From assembly GCF_964204645.1 (NCBI RefSeq), contig NC_134028.1, forward strand, positions 16,313,653 to 16,377,652: a stretch of 64,000 nucleotides of DNA. Direction: 5' to 3'. The notes beneath the pieces are model-generated. The model saw only the letters and a program-made list of their open reading frames with translations, ran no database searches and was not told where the DNA came from. Numbering within the stretch: position 1 is the first letter of the stretch; each line of letters opens with the position of its first letter. Position numbers and translations under genes: made by a program. Source of the stretch: Tubulanus polymorphus. Taxonomy: Eukaryota; Animalia; Nemertea. This document shows positions 6,781 to 51,735 of the stretch, in pieces.

Positions 6781-7339
6781 CACTATATTTCTATAGAAAT
6801 GATGATATCAACCTATTAAGCTTATCCACCTTATTTCACTAGCTGATCCACATTTAATGTTATGATGTCATGATGGAAGTCAAAACCGCGTCAACAGAAA
6901 TTTTGTAGAATCAAGATTTTGAAGGGTTTCGTCTTCGTAAGCCCAATCCTACCGAACAAAGCGTAAGACCTTGGCGATTTTAAGTTCTTCCGACGCAAAA
7001 GACATTAAATTTTCACATGTGCAATTTTGGACTGTTAAAGATGCTGCATAAAAAACGTGCTCAAATAAATCGAATTTTTGAAACTTTTTGGTAAATTTTC
7101 CAAAAAAATAATATAATAAACCCACGACTTTCAACTTTGCGCACAATGAAGAAAAACCAATTACGAAATATATTTTGCTTAATCTGTTCAATTCGCCCAT
7201 TAGTAGTGAAATTACAGACTAATGAAATTGGGTTTGAGTGTGCTAAAAATTGTATTAAGCATACGAATGATTATCCATCGGCCAGACCGTTGACATAGGC
7301 TTGCTGATGCGAGCCAAAAATATTTCAGGCATTTTTATA

Positions 7340-7870
7340 ATATCTTATTATAAAACGGCACTTTTAATAAAATTCTTCAGAATATTTCTTTAATTTTTCA
7401 ATTAGTCCTTAATCTTAGTTACTTAAGTACCACTGATATTTTGTACAGTTAATATATCTATATACCCCAGCCGTCCCATCCCCATTAAAAAAGCCTATAA
7501 CAAAATACTCTTTTCTTCTAATGAGACAGGTTCTATGTCATAAATATTGTTAATTATTTCATCAAATTATTATATTTCACTTTATTTCATCACCATTGTT
7601 TTTGATTAAACTATGGTCTTCTGTTACATCAAAAACTCCTAATTTAGTTCTAACTCTATATAGTATTCTAATTTTTTAATGCTCATTATATTATTCAATT
7701 TTCTTCCATCCATTTCTTGTCCAAACATCCATTGATCCATTGATCCGTATAAATCAATTTTCACGATGAGAAATACGAAGTTCATTTTGTCTAGGAATTT
7801 CTTCTAAAATTCTTCTTATTAATATTTCATTATTGTATTTTAACAATATTTAAGTATCAGCTGTTACAGA
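7340..7870 (-). pseudogene. Decayed intein (Hint N-terminal blocks A and B plus first LAGLIDADG motif) inserted in motif C of a Maverick pPolB
   Basis: Hand translation gives VEILYFD|SVTADT*ILLK, DVWTRNGWKKI, LYRVRTKLGVFDVTEDHSLIKNNGDEIK and VIGFFNGDGTAGVYRYINCTKYQWYLSN*D*GLIEKLKKYSEE. Confidence 0.85.
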
Positions 7871-8232
7871 ATCAAAATACAAAATTTCAACGTTTTTCTC
7901 TTAAGTATGGTTGTGGAACATCATGATAAAAATCATTCATAAACAATTTGCGAAATTTCTAAAACAGTTTTACCAATGAATATAGGGTTTATTAAATTTC
8001 ATTGCATTTCTCTTTATTTTACTGCTGTTAAATAACCTTCAAATCTTTTATTTCCTAAATGTCTAGGACTTGATTGTAAATGACGTCATCTTTCAGAAGT
8101 TTTTACTAATTCAATATCACTTCTATTTCTAATATATTCACCTGTTTTTCCATAAAAAACAAATATTCATTAATTTAAAGAAATCTTTCTCAAATCAGTT
8201 TTTGAAGTATTTCTCTATTGAGTATTAAAATC
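7871..8232 (-). pseudogene. Older Maverick pPolB remnant (motif B to motif C), downstream of the nested insertion
   Basis: Collinear with 22500-22860: DFNT..R, KDFFKLMN..YGKT.E.IRNR.DIELV, KFNKP..IG..VLE.S, EILYFD. Confidence 0.88.
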
Positions 8233-8588
8233 AGTAATAGGGGTAATAGGCTTTCAAGCCAAAGGTCGAACGGTCGAGCTCGTAAAAATGAAAAACATGA
8301 AAATAATTACAATTTCTACTTGAATTACTTGCGAAACTCATAAAAATGAAAAATAAATTCTCACACACTCGAATTTATTTTTCATTTTTATGAGTTCACT
8401 CCTAATTCAAGTAGAAATTGTAATTATTTTCATGTTTTTCATTTTTTACTCACCCGCCCGTTCAACCTTTAACCTGAAAGCCTATTACCCCTATTACTCT
8501 TAAAATAATCATATACATGAATAACATTTAAATTGACAGATTATTCAATATAAAAGTGTAAGCCCTCATAGAATAGATATATAAATAG
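8233..8588. repeat. Left TIR; 8233-8498 is itself an imperfect palindrome
   Basis: Reverse complement of ~26085-26439. It starts AGTAATAGGGGTAATAGGCTTTCA and has TGAAAGCCTATTACCCCTATTACT ending at 8498, with the hairpin centre at ~8360-8371. Confidence 0.95.
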
Positions 8589-9200
8589 TTATTTTATAAA
8601 TTTATTTTCATATGGAAATTGAAGCGTCAGTAATAATTTTGAACCTTTATTATTCTTTAATTTATTCATATATTCATCATGTAATTCAGTAGGTATAATT
8701 TGATTTTCTTCCAATGATTGTTGCATAGATTTTCTATCTTTATTGAAGAATAAAACTAGAAATCTTATATTCTCCCTAAAGTCTTTAACAATTGAATTAT
8801 ATTTTTGATTTAAAACCCATGTTGTTATCCCAAAATGTCTCCCAGAAAAAGCTAGATAACATAACTCACTTTCTCTCACTTTTGAATCATGTAAATTTGC
8901 GCAATCATCTACAATGAATAATGTATTTGATCCTTTATAAGTATCAATTGCTATTTTTATACAATTATCTAAATTTTCTTTTACTGTTTTAGGATCTAAT
9001 ATAATAAACTTTTTTATCTTAACTATATCTCTATTATATGTTTTATTCATTTCATAAGTTGGACAGAATAATATTATATTATCAAAATGATTCTTATAAA
9101 TAGTTTCTAACAAATCTAATATGAAATGTGTTTTACCACAGTTTGTTACACCAGTAACTAACATATTATGTGGTTCAAATATAAATAAATCTTTATTCAT
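8589..9200 (-). CDS. DNA-packaging ATPase (A32/FtsK-like)
   Basis: Walker A GVTNCGKT, Walker B LFIVDD and the GRH...Q motif of A32-like ATPases; ORF is intact. Confidence 0.92.
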   Translation of the reverse strand: MNKDLFIFEPHNMLVTGVTNCGKTHFILDLLETIYKNHFDNIILFCPTYEMNKTYNRDIVKIKKFIILDPKTVKENLDNCIKIAIDTYKGSNTLFIVDDCANLHDSKVRESELCYLAFSGRHFGITTWVLNQKYNSIVKDFRENIRFLVLFFNKDRKSMQQSLEENQIIPTELHDEYMNKLKNNKGSKLLLTLQFPYENKFIK

Positions 9201-10306
9201 TTATTTTTTTAATTTTACTAGATAAAATCCATTCATTAAATTTATCATCATATCCTTTATATTTCACCAAAGAATACTTTTTTCCTTTAAGAGTTTTTGT
9301 CTTCAATACTTTTCAATATTTTGTATTCTATTTCATCTGGATTTGGTACAAGTGATAATTCTTGTTCATAGAAATAACCTAATATTTCTTCATCTTTTAA
9401 ATCTTCTAATTTATAAACAAATGGTTTAGTTAATATTATCTTTTTAATCTTGAATATTTCTTCTGTAAAATTAAGGGTATAACCTTTATAAAAGGTTTTT
9501 CTATATTTAGATATTCTAACGTGTTGTCCTATTTTAAATTTAGGTTCGCCGAAATCATGTGTAACAAACGCTCCATATAAATTATTCCAAACTATTTCTG
9601 AATTATCTTCTTTTCTAGCTTGTATAGGTTTCATATTTATAGAACTATGTTTAGAATTATTATAACCTTTCACTAAATCATCTAACACATCGATATATTT
9701 ATATGTTTCATTAGCAGTAAAGTATTTCCACATTCTAGTTTTCAATGTTTTATTAAATCTTTCTATAATAGATGCTTTTTTATCTGAGTGTGTTGAAAAA
9801 TAATCTACATCGTTATCAGATAATAGTTTTTTAAAATGTTTGTTATAAAATTCCTTACCTTCATCAAATTGTATCTTATCTGGAATAGCTTCTTTAAATA
9901 TAGATTTAAAAGCATTTGTAACTTCTATTCCAGTTTTATTTTTGATTGCAATTGACCATGCGTATCTACTGAATATGTCTATAACATTTAATATCCAGAA
10001 ATATCCTTTATTATGTTCTTCTAAGTTCTTCATGTCAATTAAATCTGCTTGCCATTGTTGATCGATATATGAAACCATAACTTTTCTTGTTAAATAAGTT
10101 TTATCCATTTTCTTGTGGATTTGATATGTTGGTTGATTTTGTAACCATGATTTTAACTCACTATATTTTATATCACCATGTGGGTGCCATACAGCACCAT
10201 TTTCATTATCAGATTTAATTTTATTCCATAATTCTGAAACGTTAGAATATGATACTTCACTTTCTGGGTTGTAATATAAATCTCTTAAATAATGTTCTTT
10301 TTTCAT
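9201..10306 (-). pseudogene. Retroviral-like (rve) integrase with C-terminal chromodomain separated by a frameshift near 9310
   Basis: Core motifs WQADLIDM, IDIFSRYAW, QFDEGKEF and ERFNKTLK. An alternate frame at 9201-9310 reads KGKKYSLVKYKGYDDKFNEWI (chromodomain). Confidence 0.92.
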
Positions 10307-10312
10307 CTTATT

Positions 10313-10711
10313 TTAATCCATTAATAATAATTTAGATTTAGTTTCAATGGTTTTACGATTTGACTTATTTTCTGGTATGATAGGTTTATTGTCTGAAAAC
10401 GGATAACTAAGTTTCCGATTATCATTGGAATCATCTTTATCATCAGATTTGAATTTTGATTTATATATTACACCGGATAATATAATAATTGTGATTAACC
10501 CAATTGTAATATATAAGTAATTATTACTTCCAGCATTAGAAGAATTAGATGGATTATTATTTGAATCAATATCAGATAAAGTCTGTGATTCATTTATATC
10601 AGTTAATTTCTTTTTCTTTGCTTTTTTTAATTCTGGAGATCTTTTTCCTAATTCTCTTGCCCATTTAATTTGTTTCTCGGATCTAGCCTTTTTCTTAACG
10701 CCATCACTCAT
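10313..10711 (-). CDS. Hypothetical single-pass membrane protein with basic N-terminus
   Basis: Hydrophobic segment YLYITIGLITIIILSGVIY; TAAATG start. Confidence 0.7.
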   Translation of the reverse strand: MSDGVKKKARSEKQIKWARELGKRSPELKKAKKKKLTDINESQTLSDIDSNNNPSNSSNAGSNNYLYITIGLITIIILSGVIYKSKFKSDDKDDSNDNRKLSYPFSDNKPIIPENKSNRKTIETKSKLLLMD

Positions 10712-11306
10712 TTATTTTAGTTAATTTTTGTTTTGATTCATTTTCTGTTTCGCCGTTTGGTTGTAGTACATCTGTTTCGTTCTTACCTGATTTATATTCC
10801 ATAGGTTTGATTTTCGAAAATGTTATGACGCCAGTAGAAATTAATGTCATAACCGATCCTAATTGAAATGAAGCATATCCAACCCATTTTTGTAATTCAG
10901 TCATAACTAAGTAATCATTTTTTAAATCACTATATAATTTATTTTCATCATTAATTGTCATTAACCGGTTACATAATTTTGAATAACATTTTATAATACT
11001 ATCTGAAATAGAATCATTTATTCGAGCCAATCTAGCTTCTTCATAAATCTTAAAATATTTTATTACTTTATCGGGTTTCATAGAGTCTAGTTCTTGAAAA
11101 GTAATGGTCTTAGTTAAAAATTGTTTAGATTTCCAGCCAGCAATTAGTAACTCAAGATGGTGTTTACAATATAAATAGTATTCATAATCAATATTGTTAT
11201 CAACTTGAATAGAATTAGAAACAACTGGATCCTTATTATCACTAATACCCAAATCATCTAATGTTTTTTCAATATCAATACAATTCTAACTCGATTTCTT
11301 TGACAT
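10704..11306 (-). pseudogene. Hypothetical Maverick protein with hydrophobic C-terminal segment; in-frame TAG at codon 7
   Basis: The ATG at 11306 has TAAATG context and is in frame with the 182-aa ORF (MSKKSS*NCIDIEKTLDDLGIS...). Confidence 0.65.
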
Positions 11307-11917
11307 TTATATTAGAGAAATTTAATAAGAAAAATATTATAAGTATTATAAAACTAGATAGTTAAAGTTAAAGAATTCTAGTATTGACTACTGATACTAG
11401 CTATTTGAATTTAAAGAATTTCTATTTGAATCTATTCAAAATATAAAGTATTCTCTTTTTGAAAACAAAGTATTAAAAATATAATAGAATTCACTAGCTA
11501 GTTGAAGTTATTGTTTTTTTATTATATTTTATTTAAATTAGGATTTAGATTATCTCACTACTATTGTTTATCTATAGGAGCAGTAATTATAACTGTCCAG
11601 ATAAGTCATTTCGGATTCTCGATTATAAATCCTAAAACTGAAAATAAATTCAAAGAAACGACTGGTGGAAATACTATTTCATAAACACATATATTTCATT
11701 CTACAATCATTATCGATTTCCACATTCCAAGCCGCTCCTCTCAGGCCCGGTAAGGTATGCGTGGAATGCAGGAATCAATAAAGTACAATACAACATCTGT
11801 CACTGCGATATTAACAATAGCTGAATATAGAATAATGGAAAATGCATTTAGGGTAACCAAATACAAATACAAAAAATCTATATAGTATGAAAAATTGTTA
11901 ACTAAACAAAGAAATCA

Positions 11918-12649
11918 TCATTGGGATTTTATAATTCCGACCAGAATTCTTTGATTTCGGGGTAATTTTTTTCGGGGTAACATTTTTTCGATTTCTGCCA
12001 AATGATTAATAACGGTAGGAAATGGTAAACCAAATAACTGAAATTTTTTAAATGAATATAATTTCCCAATCCCTCTAAGTTTTCTTTCATACCCGACACT
12101 AATATGTATATTTTCTTTAACCCAATTAGCCCATGAAATATTTATAGTTTGAGTCGAATGAAAAAGAACAAACCCTTTATTCAAGGAATTCCCAAAAATT
12201 ATAAAATCCCAAAGATGATTTGTTTGTTTCGTTAACAATTCTTCATACTCGCTTATCAGTAATCCACTAATTTCTGAAAATAAATGCACGTCTATTTCAC
12301 TAAAGTTCGATAAATCTATATGATACAGTAATTTTGATTTTAAATATTCGTGTAGTTCACAACCGCTCAATTTGATTCTATTTTCTCTAAGTCCTAATAA
12401 TGTTTTTAAACTTGGCGTTGGTATTTTTGGTAATTCTTGTATCTTTGATTGTTTGGTTGTAATTACTTCGTCCAAAATTGACACTAAATGTTTATAATAA
12501 TCCATATGTTTCCTGAGTTTTTCGATATTTTTTTCTTCTATATCTATTACAGTTTCTTGTGATGGCGTGTTGACATCCATACATTCTGGCTCCTCACTTT
12601 CTTGCGTTAGATTTGGAGTAGACAGTGGAGTTCTTGATCTGTATGACAT
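11918..12649 (-). CDS. Hypothetical cargo protein (243 aa), possibly helical DNA-binding
   Basis: Long ORF containing W..WVKENI.IS..YERKLR. It lacks the TAAATG start, and its flanks are less AT-rich than the core genes. Confidence 0.6.
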   Translation of the reverse strand: MSYRSRTPLSTPNLTQESEEPECMDVNTPSQETVIDIEEKNIEKLRKHMDYYKHLVSILDEVITTKQSKIQELPKIPTPSLKTLLGLRENRIKLSGCELHEYLKSKLLYHIDLSNFSEIDVHLFSEISGLLISEYEELLTKQTNHLWDFIIFGNSLNKGFVLFHSTQTINISWANWVKENIHISVGYERKLRGIGKLYSFKKFQLFGLPFPTVINHLAEIEKMLPRKKLPRNQRILVGIIKSQ

Positions 12650-13090
12650 TTTTTACTAAATATCTAGAATGTAGAATAAAACTAACTTGAAGTTGTAGTT
12701 GTCAAATATCAATTACAGCACTTAAACATGTTTAACGTTTCCCTGCGTCTTAATAACTACAAAAACAGTACTTACATTTATAACTGTAAACTCCTAATTG
12801 TGTTTCTAGAGAGAAATCTTATACGTTCTATATATTGCGTCTGTTCAGTTCGTATGTTGTAATGCGACTGCACTCAATATACCAGGCACTGTCTGTCTAA
12901 GCAACAGATGTTCCTTTGTGATGTAATTGATTAATCCTTTTCAACTGAAATAGCACATTCGATCAATATTCAAATGAGGTGCGCCCCGATCAACTGAATA
13001 TAACGTGCGACAGATGCTTTTGTAAACAACCTAATACAATTACATATAGGCGGTTTGACATAGATCGAGAGTAACCGGTTTTCTAAGCGC

Positions 13091-13744
13091 TTAAGCTTCA
13101 ACGTATTTTTCATTATGTGTTGAATTCCATAATTCAACAAATGTCTTTGCTTTATCCAGTTGATCTAAATATAACTGTAAATCTAGTTTATTAGATTTAA
13201 TTATGTTTTCCTTCTTTTCTAGAGGCCTTAAATTTTTTCAACTCCAAATAAGTTTTTTATTGTATTCATCATTCATGTTAAATTTAGAAATCGGCAACAC
13301 GTGATCAATATGAAAGTATTCACCATAATTATCTATATTCATTTTATCGTCGAATTGATATATTATCCATGATATGAAAAATTCATCTGTACAACCCAAT
13401 AAATTAGATAGTGTTTCTGAATGTGTTTCTTTGTTGAATAATTGTGTTAATCTAGATCTTAAGCATTGTTTCAATCTAAAATTAAGATTTGTTTGATATC
13501 TTTCTCTCATATATTCTGTCATATAATCATTATAAGCTTCTCTATTATCTTCTCGATATTGTTTGGTATATAGTTTAGTACAAGTTTTACAGCAATATTG
13601 AAAACCATCTTTGCTAATCTTACGCTTACTAAATTCTGTTAAAGCTAATTTATCTAATTCACATTTATAACATTTCTTGTAGTATATATTTATGACACCA
13701 GTGTTATTTGTAATATTGATAATTTGTGGTTGTTCTGGTTCCAT
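13091..13744 (-). pseudogene. HNH endonuclease with N-terminal CxxC...CxxC zinc finger (large-DNA-virus/phage type); premature TGA at 13238-13240
   Basis: KKCYKC...F.K.K.SKDG....CKTC, LLGC, then FHIDHVLP. Reading through the stop gives KNLRPLEKKENIIKSNK. Confidence 0.8.
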
Positions 13745-13907
13745 TTATTATACATATTTTTTTACTAAATTGATTTTAGAAGTTATTCATTTATATGTTA
13801 TTCATGAATATATATGAATTATTTCAATAAAACTTTACATTTTTAATGTTTAAAGATCTAACTCATACAAATATAAATATTGAAATATTTTTAAAATATA
13901 CCTATGG

Positions 13908-13982
13908 ATTAGATACCCTATTAGATACCCTATTAGATACCCTATTAGATACCCTAATACCTGATACCCTATTAGATACCTT
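13908..13982. repeat. 12-bp tandem repeat (ATTAGATACCCT), about 6 copies, in a non-coding spacer
   Basis: Direct reading. The following AATACTTAAAACCCCCTTTTTT block occurs at both ~13984 and ~14202. Confidence 0.85.
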
Positions 13983-14257
13983 GAATACTTAAAACCCCCT
14001 TTTTTTAAATAATTATTATTTATACAATTTTCAACCAATTTATTTTTATTTTTTCAACTAATATATGAATAAGTTTGAAAATAATAAAGGTTATTTATTA
14101 TTACTGAGGTTTCAATTTCCATATGAATATCAGTTTATAAAATAAGATATTTTATGTATTAGATTGTATTAGATATGTATTAGATACCTTAAATACCTTA
14201 AATACTTAAAACCCCCTTTTTTAAAATAAATATTATTTTTACAATTTTCAACCTTTA

Positions 14258-15137
14258 TTACTTTTTTGAGTTAAATATAATTAATATCTTAATCACTTTC
14301 ACTATCAGACCCCCTAACAATTTATTCAAATGCTCTATCGAATCTTCTTCTAATTCTTCATTATTTTTATGCTTATTCTTCACCCATTTTACCGCATCAT
14401 CAATAGTTGTTTCATTGTTATGCTTATTCATCCAATCAAATTTATCATTATTTTCTACTTTATGTTTCATAGAATCTTTATTATCAATATCTGTAACTAT
14501 ATCACCATGTGGGTGCCATACGGCGCCATTTTCATTATTATCTTTATTAGTGTTTGCTCCTAATATTTCATTTACAATGTTTGATCCTAATATTTTATTA
14601 GCATCGGTTAAATTCATCTTTATTAGGTGTTGCTAATAATAAATCTTCATATAATTCTTTACCATTTACTTTTTTATTTGAAACAAACTTTGTAACATAT
14701 CTAAATGGGTGTTCTATAAATTCTCTTAAACCAGCACGTTCTATTACATTAGTAATATGTACCCTTGCATTCATATGTTTATTCCAATTTGATGGAGCGT
14801 TTGAAAATTCACCTTTACAATCACAATAATTTCTTTTTTCACTAATATTTAATATTATTTCATTATTTGATGTAGAAGGTATTACATTATTAGATGTAGA
14901 AGGTATTACATTATTAGAAGTAGAAGGTATTACATTATTAGATGTAGAAGGTATTACATTACTTAAATTATCAACAACTTCACTTTTATTATTATCTATT
15001 TCTATTAGTTTAGTTTTATAAATTTTGAAAATAGGATCAAATATCAAAGCTATATTACAAGGTATTACATAATATAAACCATCATTATTTTCATGTGTAT
15101 CGATGTATGGAATATGTTTATATACTTTACCTTCCAT
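14258..15137 (-). pseudogene. Hypothetical protein, probably one gene split by a frameshift at ~14610; contains a 27-bp (NVIPSTSNN) repeat, about 4 copies
   Basis: Overlapping ORFs 14598-15137 and 14258-14617; tandem repeat at ~14862-14962; C.C...H....H zinc-finger-like motif. Confidence 0.6.
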
Positions 15138-15169
15138 TTATTATATACATTTTTATTAAAGTTGAAATT

Positions 15170-16410
15170 TTAATACATAACATTATTTAATTGAGAATTT
15201 ACAATATTTAATTGCGCGTCAGATATAATATAAATGTGCATTTTAAAATTTTTGATTCCTTTATTCTTTGTCATGAATAATTGTATTCCATCTTTAGTGT
15301 TTTGTAGTTTTTTTCCAGAACCATGTAATGAATTATCCTCTGTTGTTCTAAAATCTAACCATAATGCATATTTATTACCGGTATAATAATAAATTTGATT
15401 AATATTACAATTTTCAGATGATTTTACTTTTTCATGTTTTCTAATTTCTGGCCATTGATCTATCATTCTCATTCCTTGACAAAATATTTTATTTGCTATT
15501 CCTTCGATAGTTATTTCTACTTTTGTTATTTCAGGATTATAATAATTATCAACATTTATTGCGCCATTAGTATATGTTGCAATGGTAAAAAATATTAATA
15601 TACCTTTAATAGATCTTCTTGGGAAGTTAATATTCTCATTAATTATTTCATCATTTGCATTAATAGTTACAGGTTTAAATTTATCAATATAATCATATAA
15701 TAATGAAAATCCTTGATTGTATTGAGTTTGAATTATACTTGAAATATTTTCATCAGTTACTGTATCATATTCTAAACATATATTCGATAATTTATAACTC
15801 ATATCTTTATTTACGCTAGATATATTGCAATTTCATTAACAGGAGCAAATGTTATTTCGAATATAACATCTTCTTGAATTGCGTATTTATATAAAGGTGC
15901 ATTGTTATTTATCAATTCAAAGTCTAATGGGATTTTATATTTGCTTCCATATATACTTTTTATCAATTTATCTATAGCATTAGTTAATATTGCATTATGT
16001 GTTTCTGATCTTAATTTATTTTGGTTTTCTGATTGGATTCCTTGAAATATCATGTTATTTCTATTTTCTTTAGTTAACCATAAATCTTTATAATGCATAA
16101 ATAAATTATAATCATCTAATGAGAAAACTGTTTCTGGGCCGATCTTTATTGTTAATTTTTTAATCAAATATCTTCCAACATTATCAACAACATAATTATT
16201 TTTATTACCGGTTACTTTTATATCGGCTGATAAATAAATACTATTTGGAACGTAAAAAGTATTTTGTGTTAATCGAGGGATTCTAACATATAAAGTTTCA
16301 TCGGGATTAATATTAGAAGGGTTATGAGTAATTATATGATGTGATCTTTCTGCTTTAATAGCATTAGATATTCTATGATTCTTAGAAGGATTGATATAAC
16401 TCCCACTCAT
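15170..16410 (-). pseudogene. Major capsid protein (double jelly-roll/hexon-like), split near 15805
   Basis: About 410 aa combined and beta-rich (ITHNPSNI.....LYVRIP, IKKLTIKIG, LSNICLEYD, YALWLDFRT..DN.LHGSG, YIISDAQLNI). Size and position fit a Polinton MCP. The assignment is from family recall, not from a search. Confidence 0.75.
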
Positions 16411-16430
16411 TTATTTAAAAAAAAAATTAA

Positions 16431-17891
16431 TTATTTATTTTTTATCATGTTTACTAATCCAAAATTAATTGCACTTACAACTGTAATTAAAAATAAAATA
16501 ATATGTTCAGCAGCAAAGTTAATAATGTTTCCTGCAGATTTCAATATAAAACCAACAATTGATGCAATAATTCCTGGTAATGCTGCAGCAGATTTTTTAG
16601 ATAGTTCCCATAAATATTTTGCAAATTTCTTTAAACCATCCTTAACTTTATCTTGTATAGAATTATTATCATTCGGGGGTTTATCCGGTTTATTGGGAGT
16701 AGGTGTAGATTTCAGTGAATTTGATATTGCTAAACCAATTGTTGTAAATAACATAGTTACAGCTGTTAGAATTGAAAGAATTGTTATTCCTTCTAATTTA
16801 AATAACAATTTTATTCTATCTGTTAATGATATTTCAGAATCTGGTTTTATCAACAAATCTTTAAAAATAACTTTTAATCTATTAATATTATAATCATATG
16901 ATTTTAATAATAATTTAATTTCTTCTTTTTGTAATTCTATGTTATATCCTAAATCATCTTTTTCTTTTTCTAAATATGCATTTCTTTTTTTAAATTCTAT
17001 TTCTTCAATAACTTTATTATCTCTATCTAATTTTAGTTGTTCCGATTCTTTTCTTGATTTAAATAATTCATCTTCTAAAGTTCTGATTTTTAAATCTCTT
17101 ATACTTTTATCATGCGCAATTTTATCAGATGCATGTCTTATACTTTCAATTTCTCTAATTACTTTATCAGAAAATATATCTAAATCTTCTAATTCTTGAT
17201 CTGTTGCATCAATTAATCCATTCGGTAAAAGTTTTTCAATTGGAACTTTATTTGATTTAAGTTTACTAGTTTTGGAAGTTTTATTCTGTTCAGAAGTTGT
17301 TTCTGTTTCTGAATTTTTATTGATTATTTTTAATAAGTCATCAATTCTTTGACTAAATTCTAGTATATTATCCTCTCTTTCTTCTTGTGTAACATCAGTT
17401 ATTTCATTACTATTACTTATTCTCTTAATTCTAAATGTTTCTAAATTTTTCAAAGTTGATTCCGCTAATATTTTAGTTAGTCTTGTCCTTTGATTAGTGA
17501 TATCAATATAATAATCACCATCCAAATTATAATAATATTTACCTTTAAAAAGTTTTAAATTTTCTACTAAAATTCTGGCGCCTCTATCATTTATATTATA
17601 TCCAGATTCTTCAAATACATGTGGGAACTTATATATAAATTTATAATTTTCTAAATCTTGTCTTGATAAACCTTGATTTTCATTTTCAGGAGGTATTCTC
17701 GATCTAGTTCTTCTATCAAATTAATCTGTTGATGGGGCTTTAGAACCACTATCTGCTAAATTAGAATTATATGCTGATTCATTACCATCATCAATATTAG
17801 TTTCTGCATCATTATAATCATCATCAATATATCCCTCATTATTATTTCCCATTTCTCCCATTTCATAATCTTCTCCACCTTCTACATCCAT
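16431..17891 (-). pseudogene. Coiled-coil protein with 2-3 C-terminal hydrophobic segments; N-terminus disrupted
   Basis: The ATG at 17891 (MDVEGGEDYEM) has TAAATG context. The 364-aa ORF has a heptad-rich region followed by ITILSILTAVTMLFTTIGLAI, LPGIIASIVGFIL and IILFLITVVSAINFGLV. Confidence 0.7.
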
Positions 17892-17906
17892 TTACATAAT
17901 AAAGAA

Positions 17907-19294
17907 TTAAAATCTTAAATATAATATTCCTCCGATTACAATTCCTATACAAGTTAAAGCTAATTTAGCATTTTCATGGGATTTATTATCATCATTTAGT
18001 TTAATTATTTCATGTTGAATATTATCAGTTCTAATATTTTCTGATGTATTGTAATATTTTATTTTAGAATCATTATTTAATTTAATATTATTAGTTTTAG
18101 TTTCTGTTGATTGAATATGTTTTTTATTTTTTTCACCTTCCATTAATTTTGGAGCAGTAATAATCTCTTTATTTATATCATTTAATCCAAATGAATTATT
18201 TATTGTTGCAGTTTTAATTAGATTATTGTAACCAATTATGTTTCCCATCTTTAATACTAAATCATTAGAAATAATAAATAGATTAGGGCCTATACAATAA
18301 TTTAATCTAATATGTGATTTATCTAAATAATTTTGATATCTTACAATGTTTTCTGGAATCGATCTATTTTTATCATTATGAATGGAATCTTCAAATAATA
18401 CTTTGAATTGTTTCTGTGTATCAAATGATGTATTTAAATTTCCAATTATTGGGGATCTTGTTTCAACCTGTGATCCTAGAATACATATCAAATAAGTTCT
18501 AATAGATTTATTTATTCTTTCTATACCTGATTTAGTAAAACCTTCATTATTTTCTAAAATGAAATAAACCCAACCATTATTGTTTTCTTGTTTTAAATGA
18601 TCATAAAATTTCGGTAATTTATTGAAATTTAATGTTCCCAAATCCTTAGTTTCTATTTTACCATAACCTAATTTATTATTATAGATATTATTAAAACTAT
18701 TAGATGGTATGGGAAGTGCACAATATTCTGCAATCTTTTTAGGGCAAGGAAGTGATCTTATTGTTCCAATTTTTGTTCTAAAATCAGAATATTTATATCT
18801 ATATTAAATTCATTACAAATTTTATAAAACTTTGATAAATTAATATTATTATCTAATTCTTTAAAATATCTAGATCCTGGCAAAGCGCACTCTAATTCAT
18901 TTAATATTATTCTGATTTGAAAGGTTGTATGAAATCTAAATAAACTTTAAATTAATTTATATTTAGAATTATTCAAATGATCATTCCAACTAATTCCACA
19001 ACCTGTTGTTGCACAATAAACAGCAAAATTTAATTGGTTCTGCCAATACTTCATATTAGATTTTAATAACCATTGTTTTTCATCTTTCAACTTTTTATAA
19101 TTAATTAAATAGACATGAAATATATTTTCCATCTTTGCATTAAAATTATTAGTTTCAGTAACATAAATTTCTAAATTAGTTAATGAATCTAAAACTTCAT
19201 TTCTATATGTAATATCTTTATTAAAATCTATTGCTGGAATATTATATTTAATTGATTTATTATATTGGAAAGCTTTTGGAAAACTATCTGCCAT
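17907..19294 (-). pseudogene. Conserved Maverick protein with C-terminal membrane anchor, frameshifted
   Basis: ORFs 18947-19294 (WQNQLNFAVYCATTGCGIS) and 17907-18641 (ends LALTCIGIVIGGILYLRF). A homologue lies at ~61195-62575. Confidence 0.7.
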
Positions 19295-19321
19295 TTATAT
19301 AATTAAAAAATTGATAATTTA

Positions 19322-19748
19322 TTAATTCTTTTAATAATTTTTTTATCTTGTTCTTCAACTGTTATATGGCCATTTAAACTTATTATATAATCTAGTGTAT
19401 TTTTTAATTTATTAATTTCTTTTATATTAGTTTTAATTTTTCTTTATTACTTTTTATATTCAATTTTGAACTTATACCAGTTAAAACACTTGAACTTAAT
19501 CCTAATACACCAATTGATATAGCTAAAGGTGTTAATGGACTGAATATTGCAAAAAATGTTATTACAGAACTAATTGTAACCGAACCACTGATAATAAGAT
19601 CATATATAATTTTAGATTTTAAATATTTTTTCTTTTTTATCTTTAAGTCACTTTCAAATTCTAATATTTGTTTTTCTAAATATGTTTTTAATTTAGTTTT
19701 ATTTATATCATGAGGAATAATATCAATATTATCAACTTTATCATCCAT
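19322..19748 (-). pseudogene. Small two-TM membrane protein, frameshifted near its C-terminus
   Basis: IYDLIISGSVTISSVITFFAIFSPLTPLAISIGVLGLSSSVLTGIS. The homologue at 62603-62881 supplies the C-terminus. Confidence 0.65.
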
Positions 19749-19769
19749 TTATTTAGCAAAAAAAAATTA

Positions 19770-20192
19770 CTAATTAGTAAACTTATAAGCAACAAATATA
19801 ACAATAACAGTTCCACCTAAAATCCATATTATTTCATATTTCTGTTGTTCTTTACTTGGGGTATAATAATCTGATAATTTAGGTTTGTATAGATGTAATT
19901 TTTCTTTATTGGTTACCGCGTTATATAAACTCATTGCATCATCAACTGATTGAAAATCTCTATGTGAAATCTTCTGACCATATAATTCTTTGTTAATATA
20001 ATCCATATAGTTTTGCCTCTTTTCTCTATATTCTTCTGCTGCTTTATTGTATTTCTCTAGTGCTAAGTTATGTCTTCTTTGTTCTCCTAATGAACTATTT
20101 TTATCAATATGCTTAAATAAATAACCACCACCAGTAAATGCGAAAGCGTTAACGATTGCCGATCCTATAATAGTTATAATTGCAGAAGCCAT
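19770..20192 (-). CDS. Small membrane protein with hydrophobic N- and C-termini
   Basis: MASAIITIIGSAIVNAFAFTGGGYLF...RRHNLALEK...IIWILGGTVIVIFVAY. Confidence 0.75.
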   Translation of the reverse strand: MASAIITIIGSAIVNAFAFTGGGYLFKHIDKNSSLGEQRRHNLALEKYNKAAEEYREKRQNYMDYINKELYGQKISHRDFQSVDDAMSLYNAVTNKEKLHLYKPKLSDYYTPSKEQQKYEIIWILGGTVIVIFVAYKFTN

Positions 20193-20216
20193 TTATTTAG
20201 CAAAAAAATTATGCAT

Positions 20217-20438
20217 TTATATGGGAGGAATATATTTTTGTTTTTCCAAATAATCAATAGTTAAATTAGATAAAGTAACTGCTAATGTTAATTTTAAAAT
20301 ATCATTTATATCAAATCTATCAACATTAACACTTCCCATTTTGAATACTTTTTTTAATACCATTGAATAACCAACAGTTCCAACTGATAGTAATGCTCCA
20401 TTATATAATCCAGTTATTATCCACTTATTATCACTCAT
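20217..20438 (-). CDS. Small hydrophobic protein (73 aa)
   Basis: Intact ORF with TAAATG start; homologue at ~63025-63243. Confidence 0.7.
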   Translation of the reverse strand: MSDNKWIITGLYNGALLSVGTVGYSMVLKKVFKMGSVNVDRFDINDILKLTLAVTLSNLTIDYLEKQKYIPPI

Positions 20439-20795
20439 TTATTTATCAAAAAAATTACTATCATCAAAATATTTAGTTAACTTATTTATGATTAATTCAA
20501 CATTTATTTCATTACTAGTTTCAATTGTATATATTTCAATTATTATTTTTTTAATATCATCTATAATAAAATCTTCATCTAATTCATAAAATCTTAAAGA
20601 TTCTCTAAATAAATTAGTAATCTTTTCTACATTTAAAGTTTCTTTATCTATTGTTGTTCCATACTCAAATGTTGTTTCATTAGAAAATGCAATATTTTTA
20701 ATATGTGTAATTACATCATTAATGTTAAATTTCATTTCTTTCTCATGTTTAAAATCAAACCCAAAACATATACTCGGTCCAACAGTTATATTCAT
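20439..20795 (-). CDS. Hypothetical acidic protein (118 aa)
   Basis: Intact ORF with TAAATG start; homologue at 63340-63579. Confidence 0.7.
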   Translation of the reverse strand: MNITVGPSICFGFDFKHEKEMKFNINDVITHIKNIAFSNETTFEYGTTIDKETLNVEKITNLFRESLRFYELDEDFIIDDIKKIIIEIYTIETSNEINVELIINKLTKYFDDSNFFDK

Positions 20796-20811
20796 TTATA
20801 TAGTGAAAAAA

Positions 20812-21567
20812 TTACTCTCTACATCTTATAACTAATTCATATATCACAGGAAAGTTATTCAAATCAATTAAATAACCATTATGATTTCTTATTTCTAATT
20901 TGAAATTATTGAAATGTGGAATGCAAGGTTTAAAATCACATTCTGTTAAATTATAATTTATTTGAGTTCCAAATTGTTTGACGTTTTTTAATGGTAAAAT
21001 ATTTAGTATACTAGAACTACAAATTGTTTCTTTAGTAGCTTCGAAAGTTTTTGTAGGCTCGATTAAATTGCAATAAATATAAAAGTGTGTAAAAGGTATT
21101 ATATTTGAGCTGCCTTCTGCGTTTCCAGTAACTCTAAGCGGTTTAATTCCTAACATTTTAGCCAGTGGTTTGTTTACCATAAATTTATGTTGTTCATTAG
21201 ATATCTTTATTCTAATTTTATTAGTACTATCAATTTTATTAAATTTAATTTCAAATACAGAAGTACCCCCGATCTTCAACCGAGCTCTTCTATTAATTTC
21301 CTGCGCTAATGATTCTAAATTATATAATCCTGGTTTTAAAAATATATGAAACCATTTATCTTTATTTCTCATATAAATCATAAACCCTCTATGTTCAAAA
21401 GTTTTATCCGATATATTATAAATTGAGTTACATAAACTTATATTTACTAATTTTAAATCAACACAATTTTTATATTCTCTATCTAATTGTACTAGTAAAT
21501 TATGAGATTTATAATTTGTAAGTCTTCTAGAATCTACAAATATTCTGTATTCTTTTAATTCCGCCAT
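20812..21567 (-). CDS. Minor capsid protein (penton, single jelly-roll)
   Basis: IFVDSR, S.YNI, PGLYN...L...IN, FYIYCNLI and LEIRNHNG.LIDLN match Polinton/virophage penton patterns. Confidence 0.8.
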   Translation of the reverse strand: MAELKEYRIFVDSRRLTNYKSHNLLVQLDREYKNCVDLKLVNISLCNSIYNISDKTFEHRGFMIYMRNKDKWFHIFLKPGLYNLESLAQEINRRARLKIGGTSVFEIKFNKIDSTNKIRIKISNEQHKFMVNKPLAKMLGIKPLRVTGNAEGSSNIIPFTHFYIYCNLIEPTKTFEATKETICSSSILNILPLKNVKQFGTQINYNLTECDFKPCIPHFNNFKLEIRNHNGYLIDLNNFPVIYELVIRCRE

Positions 21568-21589
21568 TTATTTTACATATTTTCTTATT

Positions 21590-21938
21590 CGAAATCTATT
21601 TCATGGTGCCCTTTTTCATTCTTACCTTTGTATACGAAATATAAATCTCCAGAACATAATTCTTCTTAGTCTTCACTTGATAATCTATGAAATCTATCCG
21701 GTAAATATGTTCTGAATTTATATGTATTTCCTTTTAATCCTTCATATTCTAAGTGTATAACTAATTTATCTCCATATTTGTTAGTAACTGTATCAATATT
21801 TGTAAATAGATATTTCTTATGGATTGTTAATTCTTTTAACTTCTTAAATTTATAATCTACTGATTTGACATTTGATGTATCTTTTATTCTATCTAGAAAT
21901 AATTTGTTGTTCTCACTGTTTGCTTGTTTACTCTCCAT
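21590..21938 (-). pseudogene. Small Maverick protein, possibly an OB-fold ssDNA-binding protein; premature stop at ~21666
   Basis: FKKLKEL....KY.......V.NKYG...VI.L...YLP.RF pattern, located next to pPolB. The fold call is an inference. Confidence 0.5.
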
Positions 21939-21967
21939 TTATAATACATATTTTTATCAAAATTTGA

Positions 21968-24900
21968 TTAACACGTTAGAATTCTTTTCATTATCTCGTT
22001 CTCTTTTGTTTCTTCTCTTTTAAATTTTAAGTATTCATCTAAATTACAACCATAAGCAACTGTATGAATTCCATCATCTAATATATATCTTTTATCATCA
22101 AATGGGTTTAGACTTATCTTTTCAATTTCTTCAATAAATATTTCATGATCTTCAGATCTTAAACATTTCATCTTATGTTTTCTAACTTCTTCATTGAATA
22201 TACAATTGATGTAATCTTTGAAATAAATATTCTTTTCTACTACACTTTTGGTTATTCCTTTTAACTTTTTAGCTTCATGTTCTTTAGTTTTATATGAATA
22301 CATTTTAGATCTAATTCCTATGAACTCTATCATTTCTTCACCACCTAATTCATCTTTGAATTTACCGGGAACTTTTTTATTATCATCGCTAAACAATTCA
22401 TGATCTTAAGGATAGTTACTGAAATCAAAATGATGTTTTAATGTTTTTAAATCATCAGTTATGTTATCAGTTTGTATCTTTAATATGTAAGAATCGGTAT
22501 CAAAATATAATATTTCTATATGTTTTTCTCCAAAAAGTGGTTGTAATACATTATAATAGAATTCATACATTAGTAATTTTGATAATTCTAAAACTGATGC
22601 TCCAACATAAATTGGTTTATTAAATTTCATAGAAGTTCTTCTCATCTTAACTGCAGCTAAATTTTCATCAAATATTCTGCTACCAATGAACTTAGGATAT
22701 GTTTGTAAATGCCTAATTCTTTTACCATTACTGACTAACTCAATATCATTTCTATTTCTAATATTTTCACAAGTATTACCATAGAATGCATTATTCATTG
22801 ACTTGAAGAAATCTTTCTCGAAATCAGTTTTAGCTTCAGTTCTCTGTTTGGTGTTAAAATCTATATATTTTTCTAACCACTTAGATTGACTGAATGAAAT
22901 AAATCTATGTACTTTTTTAGAATCATTCCTTCTTTTAGATAAAACTTTAACATTCTATAATGTACTACATAATTATATTTATCTTCCTGAGTTACCATTA
23001 ACTTTTCTGTATGAATATTATTTTCGGGTTTAATTCTTTTTCGATAACTTGATAATTCTTCATGAGTTACAGTTTTATGTTCGGGACAGTAAGCTAGATT
23101 TCTAGATTTAAATTTAATATGTTCAGGATATTCTAAATCTACAACAAAGAAGTAATCAGTATCTGAATTATCTGCAATATCGAGAATTCTTTTCTTCCAA
23201 TCAAATTTATCATTATTTTCATTCTATAAAACTTCACTTATTTCAAATACTCCATAAGGTTGTGGTTCCATCATTGCCCAACCATACAAATAATTTGCAT
23301 CTATATATAATAACTTATATCCAGGGTTATCATTTACATTGAAATATCTATCGCCTAATACACCTGAAACTCCTCCTCTTATAGATTTTTCAAATAATAA
23401 TAATAGATCTATATTTGTTAACAAATCCATTTTTATATCTGTAAATTTTAATCCACAATCCCATGTTAAACCTGGGCTAGAAAAACAATGACAAGGATCA
23501 ATATTGAAATATTTTAGGTTTACATCTCTAAACCTTTCGAATATATCGGTTAATAATAATAAATCTGATTTTAGATATAAATCTAATTGCCCATGATTTT
23601 CTATTTTGAAGTGATTCCAAATATTCAATGTTCTATTATAGACTTAATCTTTAACATATTCATTTTTTAATTCATCATAGAATTGTTCTTTTAATAATTC
23701 AGTTATATTAAAATCATTATGATTTTTATAGAAAGAATATGGAATTGCGCCTTTATATCTCATTAATTGAAAATCATCATTATTTGGGTAATATTCTTTT
23801 AATATTTTTAATTCATCATCAACTAATGATTTTGATAAGTTATCTAATGAACTATTTAAAAATCTATATGAATCTATAAATCCTAGACACCCAAATTGGA
23901 ATGATATATAATTCTCAGATGTTTAAGCTAACATTCTAAATTTATAAGTTGGTATTTTATCTTTTGATCTATTTGAATTTAATTTTTCTATTTCATTATT
24001 AATTTCTTCAATTTATGGCATAACTGTTTGATAAATAAATGAGCATCATATCCTGATAGATTATGAAATATAACTGATACAAAGTTAATTTTCATAGCTT
24101 GTAAGTTACAATTCTCATGTGCAGCGCCTCTAAACTTTCCATTCAAATGATCATGGTCTCTTACTTTTTCATCTCTAAAATTAAATATCTTTTCACAATA
24201 ATAACATTTATCTGCAAACGCAAATTCTTCTTTATCTTCTTCTGTCATTATAATTTCTATATTTGTATTCAATAATTTACTAAATCTTATTTCATATTCA
24301 ATTAATAAGTCACAAAAATGATTGATAACATTTTCATTTCATAATATTCACTTTCAATTAGTTCTGGATAATCAGATTCAATATATAACCCGAAAGCTGC
24401 AGCTGATTGATGAATCTTTTTAACAGTATAATCTTGATCAGTTAGTTCTTTATTTAATGATTCAAAATCTCCATATATATAACAAATGGAACTTTATTTT
24501 TGTAATCATATTTTTTGAATTCTAATATTTTATCCTTTTCATTTGGTAAAACTAATTTACAATAATCATGATTTTCACATAATTGTTTATGATTTAATAA
24601 TGTACTTTCATTACTGAATTAATGTAAACATTTTCTACATAGATATATTTTATTATGGTGATCACTTTCTGTTCTAAAGAATAAATCTATTTTTTTAATC
24701 CACATATAATGATTCTCATAATATAATACATCTATAACATCGTTTGAATCATAATCTTTTGATAGATATAAAGGTTCTAATGTATAATGTTTTATATTGT
24801 TACCTTTTGTATTTGGTAATTTGATTAAATCAAATACATTTATCTTTATATTATTATCTCTTTCTATTTTTGGGATGTTTTTAATTATAACAGGATACTT

Positions 24901-25940
24901 ATCTATCTTGTAATTATTTTCAAATTGTTTATAATGAGTTAATCTAAAACTATGTTGTTTATAATCTTCAACTGGGTGTAAACAACTTATTATAGCCCAT
25001 AGAAAACATTTATCATCTTCATTTTGTACATTTATTACAGCATTAGTTTTAAATGGTAGTTTAATATAACTCGATGCTTCAATATCTGGTTCTTTATAAT
25101 ATGATACATTATTTTCATCAATTGGTTTTGATTTAGTTAATTTGGTTTTTTGACTTATTATATTTTGTGTTATAAACATGTAAAGTCATAAATATTATTT
25201 CATCAAATATTAAACCAGATCCTTCAAAATATTTCTCTTCTATTTTAGTTTTTACTTCATTATAACATTTATCTAATTTATCATCTATATGTTGTTTAGA
25301 TATAATATGTTGTGAATGAGAATTTATATTATATATTGGTTTATCTTCAGATTTTATAAACTTTACTTAAGAAGATATACTAATTTTAGGATATTCAACA
25401 TCAGTTATTATTTTTATTATTTCTTTCATATTTTCTAAATGTTTTTTATTTTCTTCTAATGTTTTTCCTTTATGAAATTTAAACTCAATAGCTGCTGGAC
25501 CAATATCACTTTTAAATGCTTCGGTTATCTCTATATCGTTTTTATTATCTAATGAATTAATATATTTTCTTACATCTTCCATGTATGGTCTTTTATTGTT
25601 TAATTTATTTTTTTATGTTTTTAATTGTCTTCTGTTTCTTATCATTATCTTTATCAAAATAATCTTCACCTAAAATATCATTATTCTTATTTCTAATATG
25701 ACTTTTAGATTTTAAATGTTCTTTATAATATCTTTTATCACTGAATGATTGATTACATGTATCACATTTGTGTGTTTCTTTTTCATTCTTTAATTCATCT
25801 AATTTAGTTTCTAATATATCATCTTCATATTCTAGTTTCAATTTATTCTCTAAATGTGTTTTAGTTTTATTGTGTCTTGCTTTTTGGGATTTATCTATAT
25901 TGATATTACATGTTGGACAGTAGTACTTATTTGCTTTCAT
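21968..25940 (-). pseudogene. polB: Protein-primed family B DNA polymerase (pPolB) with several frameshifts and stops
   Basis: N-terminal C2H2 fingers; vOTU-like DDKCFLWA...HY; ExoI IYGDFES (~24470); endonuclease VII-like RDHDHLNG.FRGAAH..CN; ExoII FHNLSGYD; motif A YIDANYLYGWAM; motif B MNNAFYG; motif C YFDTDS; KLKGI. Confidence 0.95.
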
Positions 25941-26084
25941 TTTAATATCAAATTTTTTTAAAAATTGATTTTAGAAGTTCAATGATTTATATCATGTATT
26001 ATTTCAATCACATTTTACTAACACTTTTAATGTTTAAAAATCTAACTCATACAAATATAAATATTGAAATAATGTTGTAAATAT

Positions 26085-26439
26085 ATCTATCTATATATTC
26101 TATAAGAGCTTACACTTTTATATTGAATAATCTGTCAATTTAAATGTTATTCATGTTTATGATTATTTTAAGAGTAATAGGGGTAATAGGCTTTCAGGTT
26201 AAAGGTTGAACGGGCGGGTGAGTAAAAAATGAAAAACATGAAAATAATTACAATTTCTACTTGAATTAGGAGTGAAACTCATAAGAATGAAAAATAAATT
26301 CGAGTGTGTGAGAATTTATTTTTCATTTTTATGAGTTTCGCGAGTAATTCAAGTAGAAATTGTAATTATTTTCATGTTTTTCATTTTTACGAGCTCGACC
26401 GTTTAACCTTTGGCTTGAAAGCCTATTACCCCTATTACT
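26085..26439. repeat. Right TIR; 26173-26439 is an imperfect palindrome
   Basis: Near-exact reverse complement of 8233-8588 with a few substitutions. Confidence 0.95.
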
Positions 26440-26445
26440 AAAATC

Positions 26446-27575
26446 TATATATTTTTCTAACCATTTCGATTGATTAAATTCAAATAAATCTATGAACTTT
26501 TTAAAACTCCATTTGCTGATATTAATACTAACATTCTAACATTCTGTAATGAACAATATGATTATATTTATTATTTTGTGTGAATAGTAAATTTTCTGTA
26601 AAAACGTGAACTTTTGATATTTTTCTGATATTCGCTATAACTATCATCTAGGTAATATATCGGGACAATATGGTAGATTTTTAGATTTAAATTTTATTTC
26701 ATCATGATATTCTATATCAACTTAAAAGACATAACCAATTGGAGCGTGGTCTTTTAATTGCGCCTTCCCAATCGGTTTTATCATCATTTTCAACTTCTGT
26801 TAATATGAAATCTTTTTTGGTTGATAATGCATCATTGCCCAACCATATAAATTATATGCATCAATCTATAATACTTTATATTCATCATTTGCTTTATAAT
26901 GTCTATCTCGCATAACACCACTAATTCCACCACGAATCGATATTTCTAATAATAAAACCATATCGGGATCTTTTAATAGATCTTATTCTACATTTGTATA
27001 TTTCAAACTACATTGCCAGGCAAAACCAATACTTGAATAACAATAAAAAGGATTAACAAAAATGATTTATTATAACTTCTCTAAATTTTTTAAACATATC
27101 TTCCAGAATAACTACATCCGATCTTAAATATCAATCAACTAATTCAACATGATTTTCCATTTCAAAATGATCCCAAATATGTAATGTTCTATTAAAAACT
27201 TCACGTTTTACATATTCATCTTTTGATTGATTCTAAATTGTTCTTTTAATAATTCTGTTACTTAAAAAAATCATCATGTGTTTCATAAAATGAATAAGGA
27301 ATTGCACCTTCATGTCTTAATAATTTAAAATCTTGTTCATTTGGTTTATAATATCGTAATATTATAAAATCATTATAAACAAAATTCTAAAAGAATCTAA
27401 AAAAATCTAAAACAACCAAATTTATACGAAATGTTATTTTCAGATGTTTTTGCTAATAATTTGAAATCATTTTTTCATCATTATAGCGTTGTATTCTTCT
27501 ATTTCTTGGTTAATCACACCTAATATTCCGGATAATTGTTTTATGAATAAACGAGTATCATATCATCATAACTCA
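26446..27575 (-). pseudogene. Older Maverick pPolB remnant (exonuclease to motif A), upstream of the nested insertion
   Basis: SIRGGISGV..DR and IDAYNLYGWAM. WLEKYI|DFNT is continuous across the TSD with 8232. Collinear with 22860-24060. Confidence 0.88.
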
Positions 27576-27823
27576 TGAACAATTTCGAATTCAAGATGGC
27601 TGACATTGATCACATGACCTGAAAGCACCGATCTGAACCGAGGAAAATTATTCTTATTCTTCTGTGTATATTTATTCTGTTATCCAGGTATATTTATTCT
27701 ATTATTCTATGTAGCCCTAATTCATCTTTAGTGTATAGTTTGTTCATTTGGGCTGACTAGTTTCTGAGTAATGCTTAGTTAACTGGAGACACGAGTTTCA
27801 CCAAAAAATCGTCTCAGTAAATT

Positions 27824-38795: not shown

Positions 38796-39512
38796 TATAT
38801 AATAATTGGAGGTAGGTAATTTGATAACATCTATTTTCTGCACACTTCGGCAACAGGTGAGCTAATTTGGCCATTTTGGTTTGCTTTTTAACTTTTTACA
38901 CATAATAATTTCTTATATCTTAGTAACCCGATCGTTGTAGAGAAATGTTTGACAATCACCATATTTGTATATCAATGACTTGTAATATTCACCATATTGT
39001 ACTCATTGTCACCTAACATCATCTGCACCGTATGCACTATTAAAATGCTGTAAGGCCGTGTTGTAATCCAATTTTTTTAAGTCAATCAGAACTATGTACA
39101 TGTTTATTCACATTTCAAAATTGTGTAAGTTGATTTATATCAGAACAATGTTTATTCAAATTTAAAAATTTGTGAAATAAAAAAGTTTGTATGGTACATA
39201 TATGTTTATGGTTTTAGTTTGTATTTTTCTTCAAGTTGAATGTAATTTGGGAGGACTTTTTAAGGAATTTCCTTTTGGATAGCCGATCTCCTGATTGGAA
39301 ATAAGTTTCTATTGGTCATTAATTTGAATTTCATTCAGACAAAAAATGGGAATTTTGTTTGAACGAATTGCGCTGAAGGACCGAGTTCGTGGAACGATTT
39401 ACGGGATTCAAACCCAGTGTATTGGGCTACGTTACATCGTAGGTGAAGTCTAAATGTATAATTCGTTGACCGAAATGAAGGTGACTCCCAGCCATCTGAA
39501 ATAGTCAGACCC
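37683..39512. mobile_element. Non-autonomous Mutator-like DNA transposon
   Basis: 75-bp TIRs (GGGTCTGACTATTTCAG...CTGAAATAGTCAGACCC). 9-bp TSD GCGACCTTA at 37674-37682 and 39513-39521. Empty sites occur at ~45294 and ~49144. Internal (TA)n at 38703-38791. Confidence 0.92.
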
Positions 39513-39622
39513 GCGACCTTAAGGCTTTAGTATGGTGGCTGATAAGATAAAAAAACACGAATATGCAAATGAGGGCGACATTACGACAAAACGACAAAAC
39601 TAAAATAACGCGAGAAAACAAT

Positions 39623-41393: not shown

Positions 41394-41394
41394 A

Positions 41395-46422: not shown

Positions 46423-46511
46423 CTTTATTAGCTTTTGAATAATTAGGCCAATTAATAACGTAATAAAGACTTATGCTTTCGCCTATTTTGGAGTCGATTA
46501 ATCTGATATAG

Positions 46512-51684: not shown

Positions 51685-51735
51685 CATTATTTCTGAAGAT
51701 GACTATTAGGACATAGACGAAACGTCGAATAAACT
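51685..51735 (+). ncRNA. Putative minimal type I hammerhead ribozyme in a Penelope pLTR-like fragment
   Basis: CTGAAGA, stem II (GACTAT/ATAGAC), GAAACGTC, with flanking TTATTT/GAATAA able to form stem I. Confidence 0.5.

Follow-up and report, generated by a model that had tools for sequence, protein, structure and literature searches.

The locus examined here raises the question of how an intein resembling those of giant-virus DNA polymerases (PolBs) came to lie in the protein-primed polymerase (pPolB) gene of an old Maverick in what is likely an invertebrate genome, and whether it marks a recent encounter with a virus or long residence in Mavericks. An earlier, sequence-only reading had proposed that a homing intein moved between the PolB of a large DNA virus and a Maverick pPolB, which would imply co-infection of one cell. 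Analysis of the whole 64-kb stretch of DNA (the window) and of related proteins points to a more layered history, in which the window copy is very probably a dead, truncated member of a pol-c intein lineage resident in Maverick/Polinton pPolBs and likely spreading between copies by homing.

The intein remnant and its host gene

Positions 7870-7343 of the minus strand hold the N-terminal half of a LAGLIDADG intein of the pol-c type (YxD/TDS, the slash marking the insertion site). All motifs quoted in the sequence-only reading fall in one minus-strand frame: the remnant starts as EILYFD/SVTADT, continues with VWTRNGWKKI, reaches block B with its TxxH (YRVRTKLGVFDVTEDHSL, DVTEDHSL) and then the first LAGLIDADG motif, IGFFNGDG, followed by KYQWYLSN..GLIEKLKKYSEE. 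Both a Ser N-terminus and the block B TxxH are accordingly present, the insert begins at 7870 and not at 7891 as first placed, and the mimivirus PolB intein motifs cited in that reading agree with the mimivirus protein itself (P0196). Thirteen in-frame stops lie in 7283-7891, 12 of them within the intein-aligned part, as expected of an insert described as broken by stops, and about 19 codons are deleted internally relative to P0022, the closest intact relative. The second LAGLIDADG motif, blocks F and G and the C-extein are missing; profile and tblastn searches across six frames of the whole 64-kb window found neither the second half of the intein nor the C-extein. The truncation suspected earlier is thus real and larger than supposed, the entire C-terminal half being gone instead of the last block alone, and with it the C-terminal Asn and the Ser/Thr/Cys at +1. 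Because of the 12 stops and the missing half, the window copy is dead, and is, judged by its sequence, a pseudogene unable to splice.

The assignment to inteins is carried by a profile (length 349) of 108 non-Maverick polymerase inteins, whose sole match in a six-frame translation of the window is the remnant at 7870-7343 (99.5 bits, i-E 6.7e-32, covering profile positions 1-191). The proposed kinship with giant-virus PolB inteins is supported. The excised remnant scores 109.4 bits, compared with at most 6.3 bits for shuffled versions (460 of 500 shuffles scored). The more general models that had been suggested for this purpose responded weakly at best: TIGR01445 reached 22.5 bits, under its cut-off of 24.5, and a Pfam search with the remnant gave no match. 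A PDB sequence search with the remnant returned two chance matches only (E ~0.5), viral contigs one weak locus and phages one weak match. A hedgehog-type Hint domain, named beforehand as an alternative identity, is contradicted by the lack of a PF01079 match in the remnant and the pPolB inteins, by the LAGLIDADG insert and by fold comparisons, in which the top matches are inteins.

The host gene is, by homology, an old alpha-type Maverick pPolB, protein-primed. Nucleotide homology between this old gene and the pPolB of a younger neighbouring Maverick (72%, 368 columns) ends at 7871/22499, exactly at the intein junction, and positions 26439-27383 are 69% identical to the same young gene. The young pPolB reads EILYFDTDS (Y at 22507), an empty site, as had been noted. 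The best blastx match of 7871..8232 among 50 alpha pPolBs compared is P0010 (62%). The extein groups with pfam03175-type pPolBs rather than with RNA-primed PolBs and, with flanks 69-72% identical to the neighbouring Maverick gene, the locus is no endogenous giant-virus fragment with PF00136-type PolB flanks; on this point the earlier assignment held. PF03175 itself matches P0022, P0127 and P0144; its match on the neighbouring pPolB (E 3.5e-4) is below the cut-off.

The old carrier element is identified by its polymerase remains alone; terminal inverted repeats (TIRs), target duplication, integrase and capsid belong instead to the young element (Table 1). This second Maverick, of complete length, is nested in the polymerase gene of the older one and flanked by a clean 6-bp target duplication (8227-8232 and 26440-26445). 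Its TIR contains an internal palindrome (8233-8498 is 85% identical to its own reverse complement), and one of its ORFs (13238-13744, minus strand) combines a Cys-rich N-terminus with a weak HNH match (E 0.074) and is possibly a free-standing homing endonuclease. The Atlas clusters nearest to this pPolB family are eukaryotic, Arthropoda being commonest, and a comparison of the young pPolB with viral contigs gave three loci. Elsewhere in the window, remains of a third Maverick at ~56600-64000 are 71-83% identical to the young element's genes, with no pPolB found among them, and several tandem arrays, with an apparent unit of ~31 bases, and larger duplicated blocks occupy ~39500-54700. The remainder consists of retroelements (RT matches by Pfam), which by eye we take to be of the CR1, L2, Penelope and BEL/Pao clades, and the window holds no host cellular gene. 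Together with the Atlas clusters, this set of retroelements makes an invertebrate host likely.

Table 1. Features of the window that bear on the intein and the two nested Mavericks (coordinates are those of the window).
Feature	Position	Strand	Details
Unrelated high-copy repeat adjoining the truncated end of the intein	6862..7323	.	identical 462-base contig spans the junction
Intein remnant	7343..7870	-	block A Ser1 codon at 7870, block B TxxH (T of TEDH) at 7624, LAGLIDADG motif 1 at 7495; 12 stops, ~19-codon deletion
Frameshifted stretch of old pPolB adjoining the intein on its upstream side (motif B region to YFD)	7871..8232	-	72% nt identity to young pPolB 22499-22861
Younger Maverick inserted in old pPolB	8233..26439	-	TIRs 8233-8613 / 26061-26439, 95% identical
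A32 ATPase of young Maverick	8589-9200	.	within 8233..26439
rve integrase of young Maverick	9287-10312	.	within 8233..26439
Capsid-like ORF of young Maverick	15811-16410	.	weak match
pPolB of young Maverick, broken	21971..25937	-	empty intein site YFD/TDS between 22499 and 22498
More upstream stretch of old pPolB (from exonuclease to motif A region)	26440..27577	-	69% nt identity to young pPolB 22855-23826; tblastn with P0010

The intein in other Mavericks

Reads of the same organism (three runs, at most two samples, one study) gave 47, 4 and 9 contigs on 7300-7960 in the three runs, mostly less than 90% identical. Because the identical contig in Table 1 bridges the junction of repeat and intein, that junction is not peculiar to the window assembly, although the run that yielded it may be the source sample. 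In two of the runs, X2 and X3, one contig each runs from the intein into a young-type flank that matches the young element (22519-22548) at 27 of 30 bases by eye; the depths of these contigs are 205 (X2) and 69 (X3), about ten times those of the respective locus-identical contigs (21.6 and 5.2). Summed depths differed ~20-fold between two runs of one sample and are not read as copy numbers. Since these contigs join the intein to this flank, the young family, or one closely related to it, also contains the intein, although its window copy is empty; the intein is thus present in two Maverick families of the organism that are ~70% identical.

Beyond this organism, protein searches show that an intein in a pPolB is no one-off: at least five other pPolBs carry a full intein at the same site (P0022, P0127, P0128, P0129 and P0144) and at least two carry pieces (P0171 and P0328). 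P0022 (1693 aa, 67% identical to the young pPolB) is the one full-intein carrier among the 120 of 912 matches listed for the young pPolB; it reads YGD/S...N/TDS, and its intein is 41% identical to the remnant (E 6e-36). Among the 120 of 1236 matches listed for the P0022 intein region, pPolB exteins occur in P0022, P0127, P0128, P0129, P0144 and the partial P0171 (a stop inside the intein in L050), the others being RNA-primed PolBs. A further search with 130 new representative matches added P0328, in which the second half of this intein is joined to a C-extein that is 74% identical to P0007 and by eye almost the same as that of P0010, the closest relative of the old element, and P0432, an intein fragment nearest to the P0127 family. 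P0144, which has PF03175 and no BLAST match to the alpha pPolB P0007, is read as a beta-type pPolB, the classes following PMC8502044; by eye it also carries a VSR-like nuclease insert. P0220 and P0243, with a precomputed PF03175 label and no match to P0007, were treated as RNA-primed PolBs. Two other Maverick-type pPolBs, P0012 and P0024, are filed as Bartonella sp. and Sulfurimonas sp. and are probably eukaryotic contamination of genome bins.

The intact copies, known from protein sequences with DNA context for L050 alone (4.2 kb), hold an in-frame insert of ~340-355 residues in the catalytic YxD/TD(S/A) motif. All five full inteins keep Ser1, TxxH, two LAGLIDADG motifs, the terminal Asn and Thr+1. 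The anticipated HN/T ending is found in P0127, P0128 and P0129, while P0022 ends in SN/T, and P0144 and P0328 in KN/T, as does mimivirus. PF14528 exceeds its cut-off in P0022, P0127, P0128 and P0144, and PF14890 in P0127 only. An alignment-based structure model of the P0022 intein (28 sequences, pLDDT 87.8), used in place of a single-sequence prediction with a pLDDT of 39.9, matches best HEN-containing inteins in the PDB (TliVMA, E 2e-16) and NCLDV PolB inteins in BFVD, so that the relatives' intein is modelled as a Hint plus HEN fold. ESM Atlas matches for the P0127 region were all below 0.9. From the conserved residues, the Hint domain is predicted to self-splice and restore the polymerase.

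Occupied and empty alleles

Evidence of homing comes from the P0127 cluster (136 members; the 15 listed lie on ENA contigs between 57 kb and 1 Mb in length). Seven of the 12 near-full proteins among those listed are occupied and five are empty; their exteins are 94-99.7% identical, and the two kinds of allele differ by 346 aa. Both the window junction and this family thus show a conserved site that is filled in frame in some alleles and empty in others. All ten columns that separate occupied from empty alleles lie within 1036-1086 of 1193, the site being at ~1043, and such separating columns arise in 1 of 792 possible 7/5 label splits; in a tree built without this tract the two kinds of allele intermix, with weak signal. 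We infer that this clustering reflects co-conversion of flanks, a process described for intein invasion (PMC10643990), whose expected pattern it matches.

At the 16 columns closest to the site, occupied alleles show no variation, while empty alleles vary at 5 of these 16 columns against 76 of 1100 elsewhere (p 0.004, the columns having been chosen post hoc), as attack by the endonuclease would predict. The empty alleles read DTDA (four) or DCDS (one). In a motif count that left out 8 of 120 pPolBs, DCDS was present in 24 of the 36 related pPolBs with an empty site, compared with 1 of 75 others. Mavericks may accordingly be evolving a cut-resistant catalytic motif (DTDA, DCDS), which we put forward as a hypothesis because DCDS may have a single origin. 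As an observation in its own right, DCDS replaces DTDS in motif C across most of one Maverick clade that adjoins the intein-polymorphic family, a possible case of endonuclease escape.

Phylogeny and origin

In a tree of 52 rows, from which 14 long or short inteins and near-duplicates had been dropped, the Maverick inteins form one side of a branch (SH-aLRT 94), and after removal of 20 more their clade has a support of 100 in 32 rows (mixture model, quick search). The remnant is sister to P0022 in both (90 and 96, respectively). When the tree is rooted on three other-site inteins, from which the same-site (pol-c) rows split with a support of 99, the Maverick clade is nested among NCLDV-type pol-c inteins (99, 97), beside a group that includes ChoanoV1. 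A C-terminal motif of GFPL type recurs in all five full Maverick inteins and in one NCLDV clade only, that of ChoanoV1; outside the motif the two groups are no closer than average, and an AU test does not reject joining them (p 0.37). GFPL was also considered as a Maverick-specific marker and ruled out, since in two scans it lay in frame at 72 of 77 loci, comprising 67 of RNA-primed PolB type, 4 unrelated and 1 pPolB (L050); a stricter GFPL-type pattern gave no matches in genome contigs.

On the host tree, carriers make up 5 of 50 alpha pPolBs, require four changes and fall in one subclade, each beside empty relatives. Intein and host trees are largely congruent among alpha pPolBs, with the same pairings, which implies that the intein's past includes a long stay in these genes with losses, and its occurrence in alpha as well as beta pPolBs calls for one or more lateral moves. 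The comparison of intein and pPolB phylogenies that had been proposed therefore yields at least one lateral alpha/beta move and an alpha history that also fits inheritance with losses.

Proposed mechanism and competing explanations

Taken together, these observations suggest a cycle in which the Hint domain would excise itself (Ser1, TxxH, terminal Asn, Thr+1) and restore the catalytic motif of the polymerase, while the two-motif LAGLIDADG domain would cleave Maverick alleles that lack the intein. To judge from the allele pattern, repair templated by an occupied copy would then bring in the intein together with ~50 codons of flank. If splicing restores the catalytic motif, imprecise loss of the intein would be impossible. 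For the first capture, a Maverick and a donor PolB gene would have had to share a cell, and flanking homology would have been almost absent; as direct homing between such distant genes was held implausible by Ogata et al. (PMC549080), illegitimate repair at the shared motif would be the likely route. The lineage would then have persisted, with losses, in one alpha-pPolB subclade, with at least one alpha/beta crossing. In the window its carrier decayed and was split by the younger Maverick, and the intein's C-terminal half was lost.

A single ancient capture followed by passive inheritance, with empty alleles arising through loss, or through conversion by divergent families that lack the intein, and no homing at present, would account for the shared pairings of alpha pPolBs in the two trees, and the tract, which is symmetrical round the site, could mark removal instead of gain. 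This is nevertheless improbable in view of the retention of both LAGLIDADG motifs in all five full-length inteins compared, the spread over alpha and beta pPolBs and over two families of this organism, and the variation of empty alleles near the site. A recent, direct transfer from a giant virus into the old element, by co-infection of this animal, we regard as highly improbable: NCLDV inteins, including that of mimivirus (35% identity to the remnant, E 2e-24), score almost as high as some Maverick inteins, but the top matches are Maverick pPolB inteins, the remnant stands with P0022 inside the Maverick clade, and its GC content (25.6%) is like that of the host element (24.3-24.7%). Since its nearest kin are Maverick inteins with a clade of their own, the cross-class jump must be old and have taken place in some host cell. 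The kinship to NCLDV inteins that prompted the sequence-only reading thus stands, while the window copy itself is no recent arrival; we infer co-infection for the ancient capture, and it says nothing on the present animal.

As regards that capture, the intein lineage probably derived, long ago, from the RNA-primed PolB of a large DNA virus, the direction from giant virus to Maverick being favoured by the rooted tree and the shared C-terminal motif. A source outside the NCLDVs (an archaeal or phage PolB), or movement from Maverick to giant virus, seems rather unlikely and would concern origin only, being compatible with homing. It draws on unrooted trees that place Maverick and NCLDV inteins on opposite sides, on an AU test that does not reject NCLDV monophyly, that is, an un-nested arrangement (p 0.32), and on P0005, which joins the Maverick clade in the rooted tree; against it, P0005 is a very long branch (2.0), GFPL is shared with a single NCLDV clade, and rooting on other-site inteins nests the Mavericks within NCLDV-type rows. 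By eye, P0005 is a PolB of non-NCLDV appearance, and it seems to contain three inteins. The resident, homing lineage preferred here may be extended to a bolder proposal that we advance tentatively: an active, giant-virus-derived homing endonuclease in animal nuclear genomes could now be converting Maverick copies, including those of this organism, with cut-resistant motifs (DTDA, DCDS) evolving in the Mavericks, and the intein could be a fossil trace of a time when Mavericks replicated next to giant viruses.

Significance and comparison with known systems

With this lineage, an intein allele already known from other polymerases is found in a class of host gene new to it, and the intein-bearing pPolBs probably lie in animal chromosomes. 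Inteins are stated to be absent from metazoan genomes in one review (PMC8529194); the window intein would be an exception that resides in an integrated virus-like element and not in a cellular gene. It would also document exchange between two polymerase classes that share little besides the catalytic motif, and so bears on encounters of Mavericks and giant viruses in cells. Because occupied and empty alleles are almost identical, homing, co-conversion and resistance can be tested directly. A nuclease that targets a repeat present in many copies could also promote ectopic recombination in the host genome. Searches of full-text literature found no description of a true intein in a protein-primed polymerase; an earlier mention may exist in supplements, subscription journals, InBase or Repbase.

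Among described systems, the host gene of the Chilo iridescent virus intein is ribonucleotide reductase. That intein (cited in PMC549080) likewise occurs in a DNA virus of an animal, but is Gln-type, belongs to a non-integrating NCLDV and is neither chromosomal nor in a pPolB. Nuclease domains in Polinton polymerases are known as HNH and VSR inserts (Jeong et al., 2023, PMC10748475; Krupovic et al., 2024, PMC11161782), which Krupovic et al. speculate 'result from intein invasions' (PMC11161782; PMC11071308); the words intein, Hint and LAGLIDADG are absent from the main text of Jeong et al., as is 'intein' from the main text of Starrett et al. In contrast to the HNH or VSR inserts described in these texts, the present insert combines Hint and LAGLIDADG domains in an intein, interrupts the active-site motif and exists alongside empty alleles. 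Archaeal pol-c inteins (PMC549080; PMC4760082) share the catalytic motif C site and the intein architecture, but lie in cellular genes and are far more distant; the best archaeal match of the mimivirus intein itself is 24% (PMC549080). The closest parallel is the mimivirus (APMV) PolB intein (Ogata et al., 2005, PMC549080; P0196), which has the same YGD/TDS site, Ser1, Asn and Thr+1, TxxH, two LAGLIDADG motifs and a length of ~350 aa. Its host is the RNA-primed PolB of a free giant virus of amoebae, whereas the inteins considered here occupy the pPolB of an integrating element and form a separate clade.
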